Positions 3,639 through 64,000 of a DNA stretch of 64,000 nt are shown here, piece after piece. The stretch is from Dehalococcoidia bacterium. GTDB taxonomy: Bacteria; Chloroflexota; Dehalococcoidia; UBA2979. The position numbers were made by a program, and so were the translations under genes. Position 1 is the stretch's first letter; each line of letters opens with the position of its first letter. The stretch is from positions 480,001 to 544,000 of the forward strand of contig OZ219871.1 of the NCBI GenBank assembly GCA_964291495.2. Direction: 5' to 3'. The notes under the pieces were generated by a model. The model did no database searches, had not been told where the DNA came from, and was given only the letters and a program-made list of their open reading frames with translations.

Positions 3639-4799
3639 TTACGTCGAGTCCGCCGCGTCCGCCTCGGGAGGTTTGGTCGGCGCCCAGTAGCGGGCGGCAA
3701 AGTAGGCGAGGAAGGCGGCGAGCAGCAGCGCGATCACGCCGATCACCGCGAGCACGATCACCAGCAGCCGCCCGATCGTGAGGTCCGTCGAGCCCTGCCC
3801 GATCCCGATGCCGATCGCGAACGCGAGCGCCAGCGCCGCCCCGGCCCCGAGCACGCCCCCGGTGGGCAGGAACAGCTCCAGGATCACCAGCAGCACGGCG
3901 AGCACCACGAAGGCGAGCGCGGCCTCGGCGGGCAGCAGCGTGCCGACACCGAGGAAGAACAGCAGCAGCGCGAGCGCCCCGGCGACGCCGGGAAGGAACG
4001 AGCCGGGCGCGAAGAACAGCTCCGTCGCGATGCCGGCCATCCCGATTAGCAGCAGCAGCGTGACCACCAGCGGGTCGCCGAGGAAGGCGACGATCCGCTC
4101 GTAAGCGTTGAACTCGTTCTCCACGCGCGGCGCGATCGCGAGCTGGAGCACGACGATGCGCCCGTCGATCAGCTCCACCGCGCGGCCCTCGACGGCGGCG
4201 AGCAGCTCCGACTCCGTCGCCGCCACGAGGTCGACCACGTTCAGCTCCAGCGCCTCGTTCGGGGTCGCGGAGATCGCATCGCGGACGGCGGCCTCGGCCC
4301 AGTCGGCGTTGCGCCCGTGCAGCTCGGCGACGCCGCGCGCGAAGGCGACGGTGTCGTTGGTGACCTTGCGTCCGAGGGCGCCCTCGACGTCCTCGCCCGT
4401 GGCGGTGACCGGCGTCGCCGCTCCGATGGTCGTGTTCGGGGCCATCGCGGCGATGTGGCCGGCCATGGCGATGAACGTGCCGGCCGAGACGGCTTCCGCG
4501 CCCGGCGGGCCGACCCAGGTGATGACGGGCACCTCGGAGCGCTCGATGCGCCCGACGATCTCCTTCATCGCGCCGATCTCGCCGCCCGGCGTGTCAACGC
4601 GCAGCAACACGGCGCGGCCGCGGCTGTCCTCGGCGTGGTCGATCGCGCGGTCGATGTAGCTCGCGAGCACGCCGTCCACCTGCCGCTCGATCGTGACGAC
4701 GTGCAGCGCGCGCTCGGTGCTCTCGGCGCCACAGGCCGCCCCCAGCGCCGCGAGGGCGAGCGCGAGGGCGGGCAGGACGGCGCGAGCGGTACGGATCAT
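3639..4799 (-). CDS. nfeD: NfeD family membrane-bound ClpP-class serine protease, apparently lacking the C-terminal OB domain
   Basis: Signal peptide, DTPGG, AVSAGTFIAMAGHIAAMAPNTTIGAATPV, GRNADWAE, followed by TM helices. Confidence 0.85.
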   Translation of the reverse strand: MIRTARAVLPALALALAALGAACGAESTERALHVVTIERQVDGVLASYIDRAIDHAEDSRGRAVLLRVDTPGGEIGAMKEIVGRIERSEVPVITWVGPPGAEAVSAGTFIAMAGHIAAMAPNTTIGAATPVTATGEDVEGALGRKVTNDTVAFARGVAELHGRNADWAEAAVRDAISATPNEALELNVVDLVAATESELLAAVEGRAVELIDGRIVVLQLAIAPRVENEFNAYERIVAFLGDPLVVTLLLLIGMAGIATELFFAPGSFLPGVAGALALLLFFLGVGTLLPAEAALAFVVLAVLLVILELFLPTGGVLGAGAALALAFAIGIGIGQGSTDLTIGRLLVIVLAVIGVIALLLAAFLAYFAARYWAPTKPPEADAADST

Positions 4800-4845
4800 T
4801 CGCGGGCCTCCCCTGACACGATAGCCGTACGCGCGGGCGTCCGGC

Positions 4846-5478
4846 TCACAGCTCGCGGGCGAGGTCCTCGTCGCGACCGGCGAAGACGAGCATGTCGCCG
4901 GGGCCGATCGTGCGATCGCGGACGGGGTTGAGCTCGACCTCGCCGCGCCGCACGGCGATGAGCAGCCGCCGCGTGCCGTCCTGGCTGTCGACCTCGCCGA
5001 GGGTGCGGCCGTGCAGGTGCTCCGGCGCGTCCTGGATCGCAATCCCGTAGTCGTGGCTGATCGAGAGGTAGTCCCGGGCGCCCTGCACGCGCATCAGGTG
5101 CGCGAAGCGCTCGCCTCCGTCGCGCTCCGGCTGCACCACACGGGTGACGCCGATCCGCTGGAGGATCGAGGCGTGGAGCTCGTTGGAGGCCTTCGCGTAC
5201 ACCGCGGTCACGCCCAGCGCCTGCACGTTCATCGCCGCGAGGACGCTGGCCTCGATCACGCCGGTTGCGACGACGGCGGCGTCGACGTTGCCGACGCCGA
5301 GGTCGCGCAGCGCCAGCTCGTTGGTGATGTCGGCAACGGCGGCCTTCGCGGAGTGGGGCGCCGCCCGCTCCACGCTCGCCTCGTTGAAGTCCACCGCGAG
5401 CACCTCGTGGCCGAGTTGCCCGAGTTCACGGACGATCTGCGATCCGAAGCGCCCAAGTCCGAGTACGGCGATCTCCAT
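4846..5478 (-). CDS. ktrA: Ktr/Trk potassium uptake NAD-binding subunit
   Basis: IAVLGLGRFG, HEVLAVD, VVQPERDGG; adjacent to ktrB. Confidence 0.88.
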   Translation of the reverse strand: MEIAVLGLGRFGSQIVRELGQLGHEVLAVDFNEASVERAAPHSAKAAVADITNELALRDLGVGNVDAAVVATGVIEASVLAAMNVQALGVTAVYAKASNELHASILQRIGVTRVVQPERDGGERFAHLMRVQGARDYLSISHDYGIAIQDAPEHLHGRTLGEVDSQDGTRRLLIAVRRGEVELNPVRDRTIGPGDMLVFAGRDEDLAREL

Positions 5479-5498
5479 CGTTCGCTCCTCTCGCTCTG

Positions 5499-6902
5499 CT
5501 ACCCGATGCGCACGCGCCCGTACGAGTAACGGTAGCGCTCCTGCGGGCGGTCCGGAATCGAGATCGCGACGATCAGCGGTCCGAGCCGCCCGACGAACAT
5601 CAAGGCGGTCATCAGGATGACGCCCGGCGTGGAGAGCTCACCCGTGCTGCCCATCGACCAGCCGACGTTGGCGAGGCCGGACATGACCTCGAACAGCAGC
5701 TGGACGAACGGTCCGTCCTCGAACCTCAGCAGCAGCGACAGCCCGCCGGCGAGCAGGAAGACGCCGAGCAGCGTGACGGCCGTCGCGCGCAGCACGATCG
5801 CCTGCGGGATCTCGCGCCCGAAGACCTGCGCGCTGTGCCTGCCGCGGAGGGCGGAGAGGATCACGACGAGCGAGACCATGAAGGTCCCGATCTTGATCCC
5901 GCTCGCGGTGGAGGTGGACGCGCCGCCGATGAACATCAGCGGCAGCAGCATCGCGATGGTTGGATCCTGCAACGAGGCGATTTCGATCGTCGACATGCCG
6001 GTCGTGCGGTTGACGGCGAGGAAGTAGATGTTCGCGAGCGCCTCGAAGGGGTTGAGGCCGCTGAGCGGATTGCCCGCGCGCAGCTCGATGCTCGCGAACA
6101 CCAGCATGGCGATCAGCTGTATCGCCGCCATCCCGATCACGACCAGCCGCGTGTCGAGCGACCAGCGCCGCGGGCGCACTCGCAGGTTGAAGACAGTGAT
6201 GAAGGACAGGCTGCCGAGGAAGGCGGCAGTCCCCATCACGATGATCGGATAGGGCTCGTCGACCTGCCCGCTGAACCCGCGGCCCCCGCCCATCAGATCG
6301 AAGCCCGCGCAGTTGGAGGCGGAAATGGCGTGGAAGAAGGCCCGCCAGATCGCCGGGGCGGCGTCCCATTTCGTCAGCGACCAGGGCAGCAGCAGCAGGA
6401 ACGTCACGGCCTCGAGCGTGAAGACGAACAGTGCCGCGCGGCGCAGCAGGCGGCGCACGTCGCGCTCGGCGTCCCCCATCAGCTCGATGCCGAAGAAGTC
6501 GCGGCCGCGCAGGCCGAACTGCCCGCCGACGAAGAGGATCAGCATCCCCGCGTACATCGTGACGCCGAGCCCGCCGAGCTGGATCAGCACGACGACGACG
6601 AGCTCTCCGAAGAAGCTGAACTGGTCGGCCGTGTCGAAGCGCACGAGGCCGGTGACGCAAATCGCCGAGGTCGCGGTGAAGAGGGCGTCCCAGCCGTTGG
6701 TCCACTCACCGGACTCGGAGGAGATGGGCAGCGAGAGCAGCAGCGCGCCCAGCCCGATCAGCACGGCGAAGGCGGCGGGCACCATCCAGGGCCGGGGACG
6801 GAGGTTGCGCCGCTGGATCGCGGCGACGCGCACCGTCTCCGAGCGACGCCGCGCGCGCCGGACCACCCTGTCGCCGGGGAGCCTGCCTCCGAGACGCCTC
6901 AT
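5499..6902 (-). CDS. ktrB: Ktr/Trk potassium uptake membrane subunit
   Basis: DALFTATSAICVTGL, LIQLGGLG, MFIGGASTSTASGIK, MFVGRLGPL. Confidence 0.92.
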   Translation of the reverse strand: MRRLGGRLPGDRVVRRARRRSETVRVAAIQRRNLRPRPWMVPAAFAVLIGLGALLLSLPISSESGEWTNGWDALFTATSAICVTGLVRFDTADQFSFFGELVVVVLIQLGGLGVTMYAGMLILFVGGQFGLRGRDFFGIELMGDAERDVRRLLRRAALFVFTLEAVTFLLLLPWSLTKWDAAPAIWRAFFHAISASNCAGFDLMGGGRGFSGQVDEPYPIIVMGTAAFLGSLSFITVFNLRVRPRRWSLDTRLVVIGMAAIQLIAMLVFASIELRAGNPLSGLNPFEALANIYFLAVNRTTGMSTIEIASLQDPTIAMLLPLMFIGGASTSTASGIKIGTFMVSLVVILSALRGRHSAQVFGREIPQAIVLRATAVTLLGVFLLAGGLSLLLRFEDGPFVQLLFEVMSGLANVGWSMGSTGELSTPGVILMTALMFVGRLGPLIVAISIPDRPQERYRYSYGRVRIG

Positions 6903-7049: not shown

Positions 7050-7892
7050 ATGGGCAAGCTCGACGGACGGGTCGCGCTCGTCACCGGGGCGAGCCGCGGC
7101 ATCGGCGAATCGATCGCCGCACGCTTCGCGGCCGAGGGCGCACGCGTCGTCTGTGTCGCCCGCACGCTGAGCGAGGGCGACCACCAGCTCGAGGGCTCGC
7201 TGGAGCGCACGGTCGCCGCGATCGGCGAGGCCGGGGGCGAGGCAGCGGCCGTCGCCGCCAACATCTCCGAGGTCGACGAGTGCCGCCGCGTGGTGGCCGA
7301 GGCGGAGCAGGCCTTCGGCCCGGTCGACGTCCTCGTGAACAACGCCGCGGCGAACTATTTCGCGCCGGTCGCGGAGATCCCGGAGCGGCGCTGGCAGCGC
7401 GTCTTCGCGGTCAACGTGCACGCCCCGTTCCTGCTCGCGCAGAGCGTGCTGCCCGGGATGATCGAGCGCGGCGGCGGCGCGATCGTGAACATCGGCTCCG
7501 GCGGCGCGATCGGCCCCGGCCGCGGCCCCTACCCCACGGTCGCCGAGGGCCGCGCCGTCCTCTACGGCTCGACCAAAGCCGCGCTTGAGCGCTTCACGCA
7601 GGGGCTGGCCGAGGAGGTCGAGCGCCACGGCGTCGCCGTCTCCTGCGTCTCGCCCTCCGAGCCCGTGCGGACACCAGGCGCGCTGTTCCACCTCGAAGTC
7701 TCCGGGATGGGCGACAAGGGCGCACCCGTCGACTACATGGTCGAGGCTGCGCTGCTGCTGGCGACGGAGCCGCTCGAGCGGGTGAGCGGGCTCGTGACCT
7801 ACGACCAGCGACTGCTCAAGGAGTACGGCCTGCTCGCGGACGCGAAGGGCACCGGCGTCACGAGTCCGGGCTCGGGCTACTCGGACAGCTAG
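7050..7892 (+). CDS. SDR family oxidoreductase
   Basis: VTGASRGIG, LVNNAA, YGSTK. Confidence 0.92.
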   Translation: MGKLDGRVALVTGASRGIGESIAARFAAEGARVVCVARTLSEGDHQLEGSLERTVAAIGEAGGEAAAVAANISEVDECRRVVAEAEQAFGPVDVLVNNAAANYFAPVAEIPERRWQRVFAVNVHAPFLLAQSVLPGMIERGGGAIVNIGSGGAIGPGRGPYPTVAEGRAVLYGSTKAALERFTQGLAEEVERHGVAVSCVSPSEPVRTPGALFHLEVSGMGDKGAPVDYMVEAALLLATEPLERVSGLVTYDQRLLKEYGLLADAKGTGVTSPGSGYSDS

Positions 7893-7898
7893 GCAGAT

Positions 7899-8357
7899 CT
7901 AGCCGCTCCGCGGGCTCAGCCGCACGAGCGGGATCTCGCGCGGGTGGGCCTCCGCGATCATCTCGTCGTAGCGCGGGTAGGCGCGCGCGGCGATCGGCCA
8001 GAGCCGCTCGCGATCCTCGCCCTCGATCAGCGAGGCGAGCACGGGGATGCGACGGCGCCGCACGTAGACCCAGGCGTGCGGATCGGCGAGCAGGTTGTGA
8101 AACCAGGCGGGGTGGCGCGGGCTCCCACCGATCGAGCCGACGACGAAGTAGTCGTCGCCGTCCTCGAAGTAGAAGAGGGGCGACTCGCGCAGCTCGCCGC
8201 TGTGGCGCCCGATGCTCACGAGCAACAACGTCGGCACGTAGGGCACACCGATGCGCCTCGTGACGTGGCGGCTGAGCAGCGAGTACCCGGTGTAGCGCAC
8301 CAGCACCCGCTCCACGCGCGCGCGGATGCGGAGCAGGTCGAGCAGCGCGATCAGCAT
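7899..8357 (-). CDS. Deazaflavin (F420)-dependent nitroreductase family protein (Ddn-like)
   Basis: GRHSGELRESPL, GSIGGSPRHPAWFHNLLADP, REIPLV. Confidence 0.88.
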   Translation of the reverse strand: MLIALLDLLRIRARVERVLVRYTGYSLLSRHVTRRIGVPYVPTLLLVSIGRHSGELRESPLFYFEDGDDYFVVGSIGGSPRHPAWFHNLLADPHAWVYVRRRRIPVLASLIEGEDRERLWPIAARAYPRYDEMIAEAHPREIPLVRLSPRSG

Positions 8358-8437
8358 CCAGGCCCCTCACGCGGGTTGCGGCTATTGTGGCATGGACCTG
8401 GCCCGGGCTCGGCCCGGTACGACGATTCTGAGGCCTC

Positions 8438-8899
8438 ATGAGCAACGCCACACACTTCCGCGCACGCGCCATCGCCCGCCTGAGGGCGTCGACGATCTAC
8501 TGGATCGCGACGACGCGGCCGGACGGACGGCCGCACTCGATGCCCGTCTGGGGTGTCTGGGTGGACGGGGCGCTCTGGTTCGGCACGTATGGGCAGAAGG
8601 TCCGCAACCTCGAGCACGTCCCGTACGCCGTCGCCCACATCGAGAGCGGCGAGGACGTCGCGATCATCGAGGGGCCGGTCGAACGGCTGGATCTCGCGGC
8701 TGCACCCGCGGCCGTGGTCGCTGCCTACCGCGAGAAGTACGTCGACCCGACGACGGGCGGGCCGTTCGAGCTCGAGGCCGCGACGGAGTCGGGGGATGAC
8801 AGCTGGCTCTACATGCTCCGCCCGCGCATCGGCCACGCTTGGGTCGAGGGCGCCTACCTGGAGACGCAGACACGCTGGACCTCCGGGGACGGCTCGTAG
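8438..8899 (+). CDS. Pyridoxamine 5'-phosphate oxidase-like (split beta-barrel, probably F420/FMN) protein
   Basis: YWIATTRPDGRPHSMPVWGVW, KVRNL. Confidence 0.85.
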   Translation: MSNATHFRARAIARLRASTIYWIATTRPDGRPHSMPVWGVWVDGALWFGTYGQKVRNLEHVPYAVAHIESGEDVAIIEGPVERLDLAAAPAAVVAAYREKYVDPTTGGPFELEAATESGDDSWLYMLRPRIGHAWVEGAYLETQTRWTSGDGS

Positions 8900-8979
8900 C
8901 GACCCGGCCCTGCGAGCGCATCGACGCCCCGCGCGCCGGAGCGTAGCCTGACCGGCGCGCGGAGGGGGCGCGAGGCGCG

Positions 8980-10002
8980 ATGAAGGTCTACGCGGGCATC
9001 GGGACGCACACGCCGTTCGCCGACATCGAGGCGCACGTACGCCGCGTCGAGGCGCTCGGCTACGACGGCATCAAGGTGCCGGAGACGGTCAACGACGGGA
9101 TGATCACCGCCGCGCTCGTCGCCGAGCACAGCGAGCGGTTGCGCATCGTGACCAGCATCATCCTCGCCTTCCCGCGCGCGCCGATGCAGCTCGCCTACAG
9201 CGCCTGGGGCGTACAGCAGCTCGCCGCGGGCCGCCTCAACCTCGGCCTCGGCACGCAGGTGAAGGGCAACATCGAGGGCCGTTACGGCGTGCCGTGGACG
9301 CCTCCGATCCCGCGCATGCGCGAGTACCTGCAGCTGCTCAGTGAGATCTTCGGCGCGTTCCAGTCCGGCGAGGGCGTGCGCTTCGAGGGCGAGCAGTACC
9401 GCATCACGCGCCTGCAGCCGCGCTTCAACCCCGGCCCGATCGACTACCCGGCGCCCTCGCTCTGGCTGGGCGCGGTGAACCCGGCGATCTGCCGCCTTGC
9501 CGGCGAGCTGGCGGACGGCGTGCTCACGCACCCGACGAACTCCAGCCCTCGCTACCTGCGCGAGGTGACGCTCGCCAACATCGCCGAGGGCGCGAAGCGC
9601 AGCGGTCGCGACCCGTCGGAGGTCGAACTGATTCCGAGCCTGCAGATCCTGACCGGCGCGACGCAGGCGGAGATCGACCGGCAGCGCGAGGTGGTCCGCG
9701 ACTCGATGGGGTTCTGGTACTCGACCCCGCCCTACTGGCCGACGCTACAGATCCACGGCTGGACGGACCTCGGCCCGGAGCTGCGCGAGCTGACGCGGGC
9801 GGGCAAATGGGGCGAGCTGTCCTCGCTGATCAGCGACGAGATGATCGACACGCTGATGCCGCAGGGCACGTACGACTCGATCGCCGAGACCATCCTCGAG
9901 TGGTACGGGGACATCGCGGACGGCGTCACGTTCCCGCTGCCGGAGGATCCCGCCCGGGACGAGCAGGTCGCGCGCGTGATCGAGCGGTTGCAGGCGGCAT
10001 AG
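8980..10002 (+). CDS. LLM-class F420-dependent oxidoreductase
   Basis: AFPRAPMQLAY, LGLGTQVKGNIEGRYG, AGELADGVLTHP. Confidence 0.9.
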   Translation: MKVYAGIGTHTPFADIEAHVRRVEALGYDGIKVPETVNDGMITAALVAEHSERLRIVTSIILAFPRAPMQLAYSAWGVQQLAAGRLNLGLGTQVKGNIEGRYGVPWTPPIPRMREYLQLLSEIFGAFQSGEGVRFEGEQYRITRLQPRFNPGPIDYPAPSLWLGAVNPAICRLAGELADGVLTHPTNSSPRYLREVTLANIAEGAKRSGRDPSEVELIPSLQILTGATQAEIDRQREVVRDSMGFWYSTPPYWPTLQIHGWTDLGPELRELTRAGKWGELSSLISDEMIDTLMPQGTYDSIAETILEWYGDIADGVTFPLPEDPARDEQVARVIERLQAA

Positions 10003-60532: not shown

Positions 60533-60684
60533 GGCGACCTCCGGCGCCCTCAGCCTAACATTCGATGATGCGCATGCGCACCTTTGCAGATACGCCGTGC
60601 CCGAGCACGGAGCGGCGACGCGCTATGATCGCGCTCGCCATGCGGACCGGAACGAGTCCGCACCGTGCGAGGAAGGCTGATCGC

Positions 60685-61623
60685 GTGAGCGCTCCCCTGC
60701 GCGTACTGACCTGGATGCCGCCCGAGATGACCGAGCGCATCAACGAGGTCGAAGGCGTCGAGTTGATCCACATCCCGGCGCGCGGACCGTTCCCCGAGGA
60801 CGCGAACGGCGACGTGCTGCTGGTCGGCGCGCGCAGCGTGCCCGTCATGGAGGAGGCGCTGAGCAGCGGCGTCCGCTGGATCCACATCTACGGTACCGGC
60901 GTCGACGGCTTCCCGATCGAGCGGATCGAGGGCGATCAAATCCTCAGCTGCTCACGCGGGGCGAGCGGCGTGCCGATCGCCGAGTGGGTGATGGCGACGC
61001 TGCTCGCCTTCGAGAAGCGGCTGGAGGAGACGGCGATCCACGAGCCCTGGGATCGCCGCCGCGACCCCGGGCTGGGCACGCTCGAGGGCAAGACACTGGG
61101 CCTCGTGGGGCTCGGCGGCATCGGCCTCGCCCTGGCCGAACGGGCGCTGCCGTTCGGGATGCGCGTGCTCGCCCTGCGCCGTCACCCGCGACCGAGCGAG
61201 GTGCCCGGCGTCGAGATCGCGAGCGACCTCGGCGAACTGCTCGCCGAGGCGGACCACCTCGTGCTCGCCGCTCCGGCGACCGCCGCGACGCACCACCTGA
61301 TCGACCGTGAGGCCCTCGGGCGGGTGAAGCCGGGCGTCCACCTGGTCAACGTTGCGCGCGGATCGCTGGTCGACAACGACGCGCTGCGCGAGGCGCTCGA
61401 CGACGGGCGCATCGCGATGGCCTCGCTCGACACGATCGAGCCGGAGCCGCTGCCCGCCGGACACTGGCTCTACTCGCACCCACAGGTGCGGGTGACCCCG
61501 CACCTCTCGTGGAGCATGCCGGCAGGCCGCGATCGGATCGTCGACATCTTCGTCGCGAACCTGCGGCACTTCATGGCGGGCGAACCCCTCGAGGGCGTCG
61601 TGGACGTCGAGGAGGGCTACTAG
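60685..61623 (+). CDS. D-isomer-specific 2-hydroxyacid dehydrogenase family
   Basis: GTGVD, GLVGLGGIG, VNVARG, EPLP, TPHLS. Confidence 0.9.
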   Translation: MSAPLRVLTWMPPEMTERINEVEGVELIHIPARGPFPEDANGDVLLVGARSVPVMEEALSSGVRWIHIYGTGVDGFPIERIEGDQILSCSRGASGVPIAEWVMATLLAFEKRLEETAIHEPWDRRRDPGLGTLEGKTLGLVGLGGIGLALAERALPFGMRVLALRRHPRPSEVPGVEIASDLGELLAEADHLVLAAPATAATHHLIDREALGRVKPGVHLVNVARGSLVDNDALREALDDGRIAMASLDTIEPEPLPAGHWLYSHPQVRVTPHLSWSMPAGRDRIVDIFVANLRHFMAGEPLEGVVDVEEGY

Positions 61624-62543
61624 CCGCGCAGGTAGCGGGCGGCTGCGCTCGCGGCGGAGACGGCCTCGCCGACGGCTTCGGCCACGTGGCCGCCGTAGCC
61701 GCGCCGCACGGCGCCGGCGGCGAAGACGCCCGGCAGTGAGGTCGCGAACTCCGCATCGGTGACGACGTAGCCGTCCTCGCACGCCACCTCGGGAGGCAGG
61801 AACTCGCTGTTGGGGATCGAGCCGATGAAGGGGAAGACGGCCTTGCAGGCCAGCTCGCGGACGCTGCCGTCCCCGACGCCGCGCAGCCGCACGCCCTCGA
61901 CCGCGCTGCCTCCGAGGACTTCGTCGACGACGCTGCTCCAGACGAACTCGACGTTGTCGAGCCGGGAGAGCCGGTTCACGTAGTCCGGCTTCGCCCGCAG
62001 CGGGCTGCGCGCGACGACATAGACCCTGCGACAGAAGCCGGCGAGGACCAACGCCTCCTGCGCAGCGGCGTCCCCGCCCCCGATGACCGCGACGTCCTCG
62101 CCTCGGTAGAGGTGGCCGTCGCACCAGGCGCACTGCGAGACGCCCTTGCCCAGCAACTCGCGCGCGCCGGGCGCCTCAAGCGGCCGGAGCCGCGCGCCGG
62201 AGGCCACGACGACGGCGCGGGCGCGCTGTCGCTCGCCCGCGGCGAGAGCGGCCAGGCCCCCACCCCCAACGGTGAGCGACTCGATCGCAGCCCGGTGGAA
62301 CACGACGCCGAGCGAGCGGCAGCGCTCGACGAGGTCGACGGCGAGGTCGACGCCGGAGAGCGGCCCGACGGCCGGGTAGCCGTCGAGCAGCTCGACGGTC
62401 GCGATCTGCCCGCCGAACAGCGGCTCGCCCTCGATCAGGGCCGTGCTGAGGCCGGAGCGGGCGGCGTGCAGCGCGGCGGTCAGGCCGGTGACGCCGCCGC
62501 CGATGACGAGGACGTCGTACCTGCCGTGGCGCCGGCTCACCAT
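61620..62543 (-). CDS. Thioredoxin reductase-like FAD/NAD(P)H oxidoreductase
   Basis: VIGGGVTGLTAA, GGQ, GKGVSQCAWCDG, GGGDAA, TSLPGVFAAG. Confidence 0.85.
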   Translation of the reverse strand: MVSRRHGRYDVLVIGGGVTGLTAALHAARSGLSTALIEGEPLFGGQIATVELLDGYPAVGPLSGVDLAVDLVERCRSLGVVFHRAAIESLTVGGGGLAALAAGERQRARAVVVASGARLRPLEAPGARELLGKGVSQCAWCDGHLYRGEDVAVIGGGDAAAQEALVLAGFCRRVYVVARSPLRAKPDYVNRLSRLDNVEFVWSSVVDEVLGGSAVEGVRLRGVGDGSVRELACKAVFPFIGSIPNSEFLPPEVACEDGYVVTDAEFATSLPGVFAAGAVRRGYGGHVAEAVGEAVSAASAAARYLRG

Positions 62544-62562: not shown

Positions 62563-64000
62563 TCAGCGCGTCCGCGCCTCGGCGAGCCGCGCGTCCCAGT
62601 CGGCGGGGAGCTCGATCTTCTTCGCGACCGGGTAGCCGAGCCTGCCGTTGTGCGAGAAGGTGATGGCGTTGTTGCGCAGCGGGTCGCCCGCGACCGCGAC
62701 CATGAAGTCGTCGGGCTCGAAGACAATCGGCACCAGCCGGTTCGGGTCGTCCGATTCGAGGAACACGCGCGGGATCCGGCCGAGGTTGACCTCCGCCTCG
62801 AGCGAGCGGATCACGTGGTCGGTCCAGTCGCCGAGGTAGCGCTCGAACTCCCACGCGGGCAGCCTCGCGTGGTCGAAGAGGTACTGCTTCACGTCCTGCT
62901 TGCTCCAGCCGGCCTTCGCGATCGTCTGCGCGAGGATCGGGCTGAGCACCAGCAGCGGGCGCAGCGAACCCATCGACTTGCCGACGGTGAAGATCAGCTG
63001 CCAGGTGTTCTGCTTGAGCACCGCGTCCGCGATGTAGGGCAGCACGCGCTCCGGCGTGTCGCCGTAGACCGAGGCCATCATGTCGCCGCCGGTGTAGCGC
63101 GCGATGGTGACGGTGTTGTCGCCGGCCTCGAAGCCGAACTCGGCGCTGGTGGGGGGCCAGCCGATCCCGGCGAGGACGTCCTCGTTCTCCGCCAGCACGA
63201 CGCGCCAGGTGTTGCCGAAGGTGGCCTTGTCGTTCTTGTGCAGCAGGAAGCCGGCGACGTTGCGCAGGTAGAGGCGCCAGAAGCGCCCGACCGAGCTGTT
63301 CGCCTGGAAGCCGTCGCGCAGCACGCCCTGCTCGTAGTTGAACCCGAGCTCCTTGATGATCGGCCCGTTGAGCGTGATGAGGGTCTCCGCGCCGGGCGTG
63401 TTGCCGCTGTGTTCGACGCCGTACTCCGGGTCGGCCATCGCCTCGGCGAGAGCGACCAGCACCGGCATGTACTCCGGCCGGCAGCCCGCCATCACCCCGT
63501 TCACCGCGATGCTCCAGATCGTGACGGCGCGGTTGTCCGCGAGGATTACGCCGATCACCTCGTCCGGATCGCGATCGGTGAAGGCGAGGAACTGCTCCAC
63601 CTTCTCGATCGTCGGTGGGACGATCGGCAGGCCATCGCTCCACTCGCACTCGGTGAAGTGGCGATTGACGTCCTCAAAGCTGCCCTCGAAGACAATCTCG
63701 CGCGGCGAGGGTTCGTCGAACGCCGGCGCGTCCTCGGGGGATTCGAGGAGATTGGCGACGACGGCGTCGAGCGTCACCTCGAGGACGTTCCGCTTCATCT
63801 CCTCCTCGCTCTGGTTGCCGACGTGGCCGGGCACGAGCGCGAGCGGCAGGTTCGGCAGCCCGAGGCCGGCCGAGGTCGTGCCGGCCTGGCCGATGAAGCC
63901 CTCGCAGACGAGCGAGGAGGTCGGCACGCCGGCCAGCTCGCACGCTGCGCTTGCCCGCATCACGGCGGGCGTGCAGCTGCCTCAGCAGCCCATCCCGGAG
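62563..64000 (-). CDS. UGSC-family (seleno)protein fused to a conserved unknown domain; 5' end outside the window; in-frame TGA at 63984-63982
   Basis: TCC GGG ATG GGC TGC TGA GGC AGC TGC ACG CCC = S-G-M-G-C-U-G-S-C-T-P, in frame with the 466-aa ORF (WSDGLPIVPPT, AVNGVMAGCRPEY). Confidence 0.8.
63944..63981 (-). promoter_or_regulatory. Putative bacterial SECIS element
   Basis: 11 nt after UGA: GCCCGC-CGUGAU-GCGGGC stem-loop, with a lower GCUGC/GCAGC stem. Confidence 0.65.

Follow-up and report, generated by a model that had tools for sequence, protein, structure and literature searches.

A predicted UGSC-family selenoprotein fused to its usual partner domain, with a thioredoxin-reductase-like gene next to it, in a Dehalococcoidia bacterium

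Introduction

UGSC proteins are among the most abundant selenoproteins of aquatic metagenomes. The text of the 2008 survey by Zhang and Gladyshev counts UGSC among the major selenoproteins of the Global Ocean Sampling data, with 255 selenocysteine (Sec) forms and 21 Cys forms; it describes fusion of UGSC to a conserved domain, "Unknown_1," which has a conserved Cys and is also found free-standing, and gives UGSC a "likely Trx-like fold" (Trx, thioredoxin) (PMC2398784). A 2022 review lists the family (PMC9312934), as does a 2026 review, according to which the functions of bioinformatically found selenoproteins are largely uncharacterized (PMC13188914). Our literature searches on UGSC found nothing on a thioredoxin reductase (TrxR)-like neighbor or on a relation to GrdB. 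Here, we analyze a UGSC gene that runs past the end of a 64,000-nucleotide (nt) stretch of a Dehalococcoidia bacterium contig, OZ219871.1 (the window, G000:C5:480001-544000; coordinates beyond 64000 lie on the same contig in extended numbering). The source genome is 93.7% complete and has a G+C content of ∼71%.

Like the UGSC family (PF24696, NF041046; PMC2398784), the encoded protein has the U-G-S-C motif, a TGA-encoded Sec, and Cys forms in the minority; as in the UGSC/Unknown_1 fusion described in the 2008 text (PMC2398784), its fused partner bears a conserved Cys and exists here in free-standing copies as well. It differs from the family modeled by NF041046 in scoring below the equivalog cutoff and in having a Cys directly before the Sec, and from the description in the 2008 text in that its model is Rossmann/flavodoxin-like, not "likely Trx-like" (PMC2398784). 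Its architecture and conserved Cys fit the wording of that paper, and residues 190 to 580 may be its Unknown_1. On the sequence evidence, we conclude that the gene is a genuine Sec-containing member of the UGSC family with its usual partner domain, not a new kind of selenoprotein. A sequence-only reading of the window had named UGSC as a known, predicted selenoprotein family of unsolved function, in line with the Pfam and NCBIfam models and with the 2008 text. It rated the novelty of the gene too high: the fusion is in print (PMC2398784), UGSC models exist, and the Cys-Sec pair is the rule in this ortholog group.

Results and discussion

The gene and its Sec codon

At the window end, the minus-strand frame reads S-G-M-G-C-TGA-G-S-C-T-P-A-V-M-R-A, with the TGA at 63984-63982. 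In the contig, the frame stays open for 125 codons before this TGA, and an ATG stands 107 codons before it, at 305 nt beyond the window. With the TGA read as Sec, a single 580-residue product with Sec at position 108 (U108) results, which terminates at a second TGA, 62565-62563. The sequence-only reading had extended its 466-residue open reading frame (ORF) upstream through the first TGA and proposed extending the contig to reach the N terminus; the contig supplies both that ATG and a frame of 580 codons. The features are as follows.

62563..64000, minus strand: selenoprotein gene, in-window part, residues 103-580 plus the TGA stop (frame reading, orthologs)
Past the window end, to 64305 (= G000:C5:544305), minus strand: first 102 codons of the selenoprotein gene (contig frame)
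63982..63984, minus strand: UGA, predicted Sec codon U108 (Cys column in homologs, TGA in distant loci)
63987-63985, minus strand: Cys107 codon, flanking U108 (frame reading)
63975-63973, minus strand: Cys111 codon, flanking U108 (frame reading)

The genome contains the machinery for Sec decoding, as it should if the reading is right: one tRNA-SeC with anticodon tca, selA (523.6 bits), selB (301.7 bits), and selD (368.3 bits), the three genes all scoring above curated cutoffs. The selD match, outside the window at G000:C5:1608812-1609747, has one in-frame TGA, so the selenophosphate synthetase of this genome is probably a selenoprotein as well.

A word-indexed protein search scored 8,000 candidates, 4,995 of which are relatives at an E value of ≤0.001. 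Among the 120 best, 104 are 398 to 470 residues long, cover 69 to 80% of the query, and begin after the TGA; most database entries are thus truncated at the Sec codon, an annotation fault that the sequence-only reading had anticipated in proposing that standard gene callers would split the gene. The remainder comprises 15 full-length proteins (570 to 607 residues) and one 861-residue form. All 15 full-length homologs have Cys in the U108 column, preceded by Ala in 10 and by Cys in 5, and in a second alignment, the rows that cover this column have Cys in 28 of 29 cases and Gly in 1. The frame upstream of the TGA is homologous as well: the Pfam UGSC match (residues 12 to 184, E value of 1.9e-29) runs across the TGA.

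Of the 18 other genomes of the genus that were searched, 10 have full-length orthologs (residues 1 to 580) with a single in-frame TGA. A scan of species-representative genomes matched at least 607 stretches, at least 604 of which encode a relative; the best 80 were retained and are called distant loci here. They span the Alpha-, Beta-, and Gammaproteobacteria, Acidobacteria, Acidimicrobiales, Nitrospinota, Methylomirabilota, Chloroflexi, Verrucomicrobiia, and Binataceae. At the Sec column, 78 of these best 80 loci have TGA and one has TGC (L097); the last ends before the column (L107).

The vicinal Cys to which the sequence-only reading had drawn attention is present. It is not peculiar to this gene: a Cys-Sec pair is the rule among the orthologs (72 of 79 TGA sites), with GCUG as the commonest form (50 of 79). 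Cys107 is exchanged for Ala or Ser at the other 7 of the 79 TGA sites and in 10 of the 15 Cys forms, so the C-U-x-x-C triad is not required. One Betaproteobacteria metagenome-assembled genome (MAG) record, L037, has two Sec-type fusion genes, at 4001-5728 and 7500-9300, with S-U before GSC in one and A-U in the other.

Mammalian thioredoxin reductase has a C-terminal Gly-Cys-Sec-Gly center. The same tetrapeptide, G-C-U-G, forms residues 106 to 109 here. Unlike in the mammalian enzyme, it is internal, is followed by S-C, and lies in another fold; some members of the family do without its vicinal Cys, and the flavoprotein is encoded separately, as a low-molecular-weight TrxR paralog of the bacterial type.

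A hairpin after the UGA

The Escherichia coli fdhF-type selenocysteine insertion sequence (SECIS) is a hairpin in the coding sequence, marked by its spacing after the UGA, a G and a U in the apical loop, and a bulged U. The stretch after the UGA studied here can form a similar structure.

63944..63977, minus strand: SECIS-like hairpin (upper stem 63970-63965/63958-63953, loop 63964-63959, lower stem 63977-63971/63950-63944)

The upper stem pairs GCCCGC (63970-63965) with GCGGGC (63958-63953) around the hexaloop CGUGAU (63964-63959) and starts 11 nt after the UGA; the lower stem, 63977-63971 with 63950-63944, contains one A·C mismatch. This is the stem-loop that the sequence-only reading had described. 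As in fdhF, the hairpin lies inside the coding sequence, its upper stem begins 11 nt after the UGA, and its apical loop has a G and a U; unlike in fdhF, the upper stem is a fully paired helix of 6 bp without a bulged U.

We aligned 85 distinct orthologous 66-nt stretches, each starting at the TGA, without gaps. The inner five pairs, CCCGC/GCGGG, are retained in 83 to 85 of the 85 stretches, and the closing pair is G-C in 64, A-U in 7, G-U in 1, and unpaired in 13. Overall, 88.2% of the cells pair, versus 23.6 to 51.2% in controls with the 3′ side shifted by one to three columns. Synonymous constraint was measured on 74 Sec-form genes, namely, the window gene and 73 distant loci; we excluded loci of the same genus and genes that contain N or have <430 codons past the Sec codon. 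The lowest third-position entropies among 109 conserved fourfold-degenerate codons fall at positions +5, +6, and +7 after the UGA (0.18 to 0.21 bits; median, 1.30), where Pro CCC, Ala GCC, and Val GTG are each found in 72 of 74 genes. In sequence comparison, the hairpin behaves as a SECIS element, because the gene's three strongest synonymous constraints fall on its codons. The single Cys-form locus (n = 1) reads ACC CCG GCG GTT CTG CGT at this site and has no hairpin. An Rfam scan of 701 bases around the UGA at an E value of ≤10 returned six chance-level hits (best E value of 0.096) and no SECIS family. Taking the codon, the homologs, and the hairpin together, we conclude that the UGA at 63984-63982 is predicted to be decoded as Sec, aided by the hairpin 11 nt downstream.

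The UGSC domain resembles the Sec-bearing segment of GrdB

63754..64000, minus strand: UGSC domain, in-window part (whole domain, residues 12-184), Pfam PF24696, with a predicted Rossmann/flavodoxin-like alpha/beta fold

Residues 12 to 184 match positions 2 to 168 of the 172 positions of the Pfam UGSC profile with 103.4 bits, against a cutoff of 25. An AlphaFold model of the whole protein, built on a 79-row alignment, has a predicted local distance difference test score (pLDDT) of 95.3 and a predicted template modeling score (pTM) of 0.94 and places U108 between strand 100-106 and the N terminus of helix 111-124. The VIA wide fold search of this full-length model returned only Rossmann/flavodoxin-like alpha/beta matches, over residues 31 to 193 at Z scores of 9 to 11; Foldseek gave generic weak hits with template modeling (TM) scores of ≤0.20. 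The fold of the UGSC domain is thus modeled as Rossmann/flavodoxin-like, not as a thioredoxin fold.

The sequence-only reading had drawn a loose analogy to glycine and proline reductases, and this has a basis. We compared the ortholog alignment with a profile of seven GrdB-like proteins of the same phylum, read through the TGA. Residues 81 to 181 align by hhalign with GrdB residues 322 to 421, with U108 on the GrdB Sec (probability of 91.7%, E value of 7.8e-7, 95 columns), and PrdB (TIGR04483) gives a weak hit at residues 88 to 183 (E value of 0.0028; 17.1 bits versus a cutoff of 300). By this Sec-on-Sec match, the UGSC domain is a distant homolog of the Sec-bearing segment of selenoprotein B, that is, of GrdB-type reductase selenoproteins. 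In common with GrdB and PrdB (PF07355, TIGR04483), it has a UxxC-type Sec center after a beta-strand, and it shares with GrdB the prospect of thioredoxin-type reduction, by a thioredoxin in the GrdB-like operon and a TrxR-like gene here. Unlike in GrdB, the ∼320-residue N-terminal part is missing, and Pfam GRDB (PF07355) has no match in the protein or elsewhere in its genome, which is 93.7% complete. Unlike the glycine and proline reductases, this system has no GrdE or PrdA proenzyme, and its partner domain is not detectably related to GrdE. No Gly_reductase family was found among the neighbors scanned, and no GrdA, GrdC, or GrdD genes were seen nearby.

In the seven GrdB-like genes, the Pfam GRDB model stops before the TGA, which lies no more than a codon past the end of the match in all seven ("GVDAVILTST-U-GTST..."). 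Two Chloroflexota loci of this kind have glycine-reductase-like clusters: L140:3726-8216 has GrdE-like, GrdB-like, DUF5940/ACP_syn_III, and thioredoxin genes, and L141:4699-8600 has GrdE-like, GrdB-like, and DUF5940/ACP_syn_III genes.

The C-terminal partner domain

62566..63738, minus strand: partner domain, residues 190-580, with motifs including DGLPIVPPT and NGVMAGC; no Pfam or NCBIfam model
63481..63483, minus strand: Cys275 codon, near invariant, modeled between helix 263-272 and helix 277-291

The fusion to a second conserved domain proposed by the sequence-only reading holds; the domain measures ∼390 residues, not the ∼350 stated. Pfam and NCBIfam scans of residues 190 to 580 found no family matches, and the size of the family was gauged with phmmer, run exhaustively against 1.84 billion cluster representatives, which gave 4,230 clusters at an E value of ≤0.001, 2,652 at ≤1e-10, and 639 at ≤1e-30. 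Of the 87 rows of a family alignment, 85 have Cys at position 275, and other residues are about as well conserved (D224 in 83, T232 and N269 in 85 each, and N336, R341, N349, and E373 in 86 each). These residues and C275 count in favor of our inference that the partner domain is an enzyme.

Modeled alone, the domain reaches a pLDDT of 94.8 and a pTM of 0.93. The best VIA wide match is the alpha subunit of class I fumarate hydratase (7xky_A; Z score of 5.4, root mean square deviation of 5.2, 186 residues aligned), and none of 48,161 chains reaches a Z score of 8. Foldseek likewise finds class I fumarate hydratase best (E value of 9.8e-4, TM score of 0.24), and the family profile, run against the sequences of solved structures, hit them at chance level only (Hsp104, E value of 0.013). 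Judged by the model, the partner domain is without a clear solved relative, which does not prove a new fold. A relationship to the GrdE-like pyruvoyl proenzymes was considered and rejected (hhalign probability of 4.8%). Atlas neighbors of the domain carry automatic thioredoxin/AhpC names.

Linkage of the two domains within the genome

The same genome encodes five further UGSC domains, four with a TGA and one with neither Sec nor the resolving Cys, and six further partner domains (L133 to L138). Among the five Sec-type UGSC domains, the window's is the most divergent (99.9 bits versus 132.6 to 159). Fused copies lie at C2:41492-43114, C6:241434-242897, and C6:572710-574137; adjacent UGSC and partner genes, in either order, at C5:176758-178316 and C2:104444-106030; and a lone partner domain at C5:614730-615557. 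By this arrangement, fused or adjacent, UGSC and partner domains are tightly linked by evolution.

Individual copies show further variation. The copy at C6:572710 is the one that has lost Sec and the resolving Cys; it reads C-H-A-G-V where the window gene has C-U-G-S-C and keeps the partner Cys. The partner paralog of the C2 pair (L133:414-1982, plus strand; G000:C2:103913-105481) has an N-terminal AhpC-TSA thioredoxin-fold domain (CPTC, 30.1 bits); behind it stands a separate UGSC gene with a Sec codon. The genome's better-scoring TrxR-like gene (L139:686-3217, minus strand; G000:C5:171185-173716), a long ORF with a glutaredoxin domain before the reductase part, lies ∼4.6 kb away from the split pair at C5:176758-178316; at 282.9 bits, it is still under the TIGR01292 cutoff.

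The TrxR-like neighbor

61620..62543, minus strand: TrxR-like flavoprotein gene, 307 residues, below the TIGR01292 cutoff, with a Pyr_redox_2 match
62132-62130 and 62123-62121, minus strand: codons of the TrxR-like CxxC (C138, C141), invariant in 29 sequences

The adjacent reductase noted in the sequence-only reading is a TrxR-like gene that begins 19 nt after the selenoprotein stop. It scores 243.8 bits with TIGR01292, under the equivalog cutoff of 343.45. Across 29 aligned TrxR-like neighbors, not only C138 and C141 but also G15/G17 and G155/G157/D158 are invariant. A TrxR-like homolog lies within 4 kb, just upstream or one gene downstream, in all 11 same-genus loci and in 28 of the 80 distant loci.

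Proposed function and alternatives

The selenoprotein and its neighbor are most likely an NAD(P)H- and flavoprotein-driven selenol reductase. More specifically, we think it somewhat probable that the TrxR-like protein and the UGSC selenoprotein make up a self-contained reductase pair in which the selenolate reduces a site in the partner domain. The TrxR-like flavoprotein would take electrons from NAD(P)H through flavin adenine dinucleotide and its CxxC, and the CxxC would pass them to the oxidized selenenylsulfide of the UGSC C-U-x-x-C center. The selenolate would then reduce the catalytic site of the C-terminal domain, which might be Cys275 in an oxidized or substrate-linked state or a substrate bound there; that substrate could be a small molecule or oxidized sulfur. 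The link between UGSC and its partner is argued from their fusion or adjacency within the genome and from the AhpC-TSA domain carried by one partner. In the model, U108 sits between a strand and the N terminus of a helix and C275 sits between two helices. The interpretation in the sequence-only reading, a Sec-dependent reductase system, is supported: of the conditions that it named as refuting, none holds, as the genome has the Sec machinery, homologs have Cys or Sec at the column, and the upstream frame is homologous.

Several results weigh against this picture at one level or another. The papers on UGSC selenoproteins found by full-text search are all, by title and abstract, bioinformatic surveys that show neither incorporated selenium nor an activity or substrate for any member. 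With the NCBIfam equivalog UGSC_fam (NF041046), the protein reaches 50.9 bits, short of the cutoff of 125; because this divergent, fused subfamily misses that cutoff, we claim UGSC membership at the Pfam domain level only. On its own sequence, the hairpin has a minimum free energy of −27 kcal/mol versus a shuffle mean of −28.8 kcal/mol (z score of +0.60), and 138 of 200 shuffled sequences reach an equal or lower energy; with no energy signal, we dropped folding energy as SECIS evidence. Covariation is thin too: two pairs show double changes, a number equaled by 390 of 500 shuffles. Covariation was likewise rejected as SECIS evidence: double changes from G-C to A-U are confined to the closing pair (7 of 85), and because the stem hardly varies, the numbers of pairs and types are no higher than those of shuffles. 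The C275 position is Ala in 2 of the 87 family members. Finally, 52 of the 80 distant loci, some of them short, have no TrxR-like gene within 4 kb; a general thioredoxin system may therefore be the donor elsewhere.

The strongest alternative, which we regard as rather unlikely, is chemistry of the GrdB/PrdB type. The U108 selenolate would attack a substrate held in the C-terminal domain, at a carbon or another atom, and reductively cleave a C-N, C-S, or C-X bond; C111 or C107 would resolve the Se adduct, the TrxR-like protein would reduce the resulting selenenylsulfide, and Cys275 would have a binding or catalytic role and would not be a redox partner. The alignment of U108 with the GrdB-like Sec and the weak PrdB hit speak for it, as do the thioredoxin in GrdB-like operons of the same phylum and the transporters and catabolic genes near the distant loci: TRAP and ATP-binding cassette transporters, TauD, PhyH, a luciferase-like monooxygenase, coenzyme A-transferase, aminotransferase, oxoprolinase parts, and, in 16 of the 80 loci, ORFs like short-chain dehydrogenases/reductases, so named from reading the sequences alone. 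These catabolic genes, however, vary between loci; moreover, the partner domain does not resemble the pyruvoyl proenzyme GrdE, and the N-terminal part of GrdB and any GRDB match are absent.

A carrier or detoxification role, in which the C-U-x-x-C center would bind selenium, sulfur, or a soft metal without turnover and the C-terminal domain would be an acceptor or scaffold, is improbable. Three chalcogen ligands (C107, U108, and C111) are packed within five residues, and according to the text of the 2026 review, the Cys/Sec motifs of some prokaryotic selenoproteins may be metal ligands (PMC13188914). The exchange of Cys107 in part of the family tells against such a site, however; the NAD(P)H flavoprotein neighbor and the thioredoxin-fold partner fusions point to redox cycling, and the distant loci have no recurrent neighbors from metal or selenium metabolism except selA or selB, in 6 of 80. 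Least probable by far is a two-gene reading, in which a peptide of 107 residues ends at the TGA and a separate gene of 466 codons starts at the GTG at 63963: database entries of 398 to 470 residues do begin after the TGA and the hairpin energy is no better than chance, but one Pfam domain spans the TGA, the 466-residue ORF would start within a helix of that domain, Cys forms are single proteins of 570 to 607 residues, the TGA and hairpin are conserved across phyla, and the genome has the full Sec machinery. Both of these alternatives fit the data poorly.

We tentatively entertain a broader possibility, which has less than an even chance. The partner domain could be the catalytic subunit of an undescribed class of Sec-dependent reductases, with a fold without a solved relative and chemistry outside known enzyme families; it would receive electrons from a dedicated TrxR paralog via a GrdB-derived Sec domain and would be widespread in aerobic aquatic and soil bacteria (at least 604 stretches). 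If this is true, the chemistry of the class would be reductive bond cleavage or the reduction of an oxidized sulfur or selenium compound. The locus presents the system in its most compact form, with the Sec domain and partner in one chain and the presumed reductase 19 nt downstream. Together with Cys-form orthologs, which can be expressed without Sec machinery, it offers a defined two-protein set for biochemistry and structure determination.

Other neighbors

Besides the fusion gene, 30 of the 80 distant loci carry the partner domain a second time as a free-standing copy, mostly right after the fusion gene and 33% identical to the fused copy (E value of 4e-46); such a copy is not found at the locus in the window's genus. 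A Novosphingobium sp. MAG record (L040:17-5803) has the order selA, selB, TrxR-like gene, and fusion selenoprotein gene; because these stand in one row, the Sec machinery may be kept there mainly for the fusion selenoprotein.

SnoaL-like and DegT-like upstream neighbors were considered as parts of the module and rejected, because neither is conserved outside the genus (5 of 91 loci each). On the plus strand of the window, a 352-codon ORF (60565-61623) converges on the TrxR-like gene and is kept beside it in 10 of 11 same-genus loci; it weakly resembles an ORF in L102 that Pfam calls a D-2-hydroxyacid dehydrogenase.

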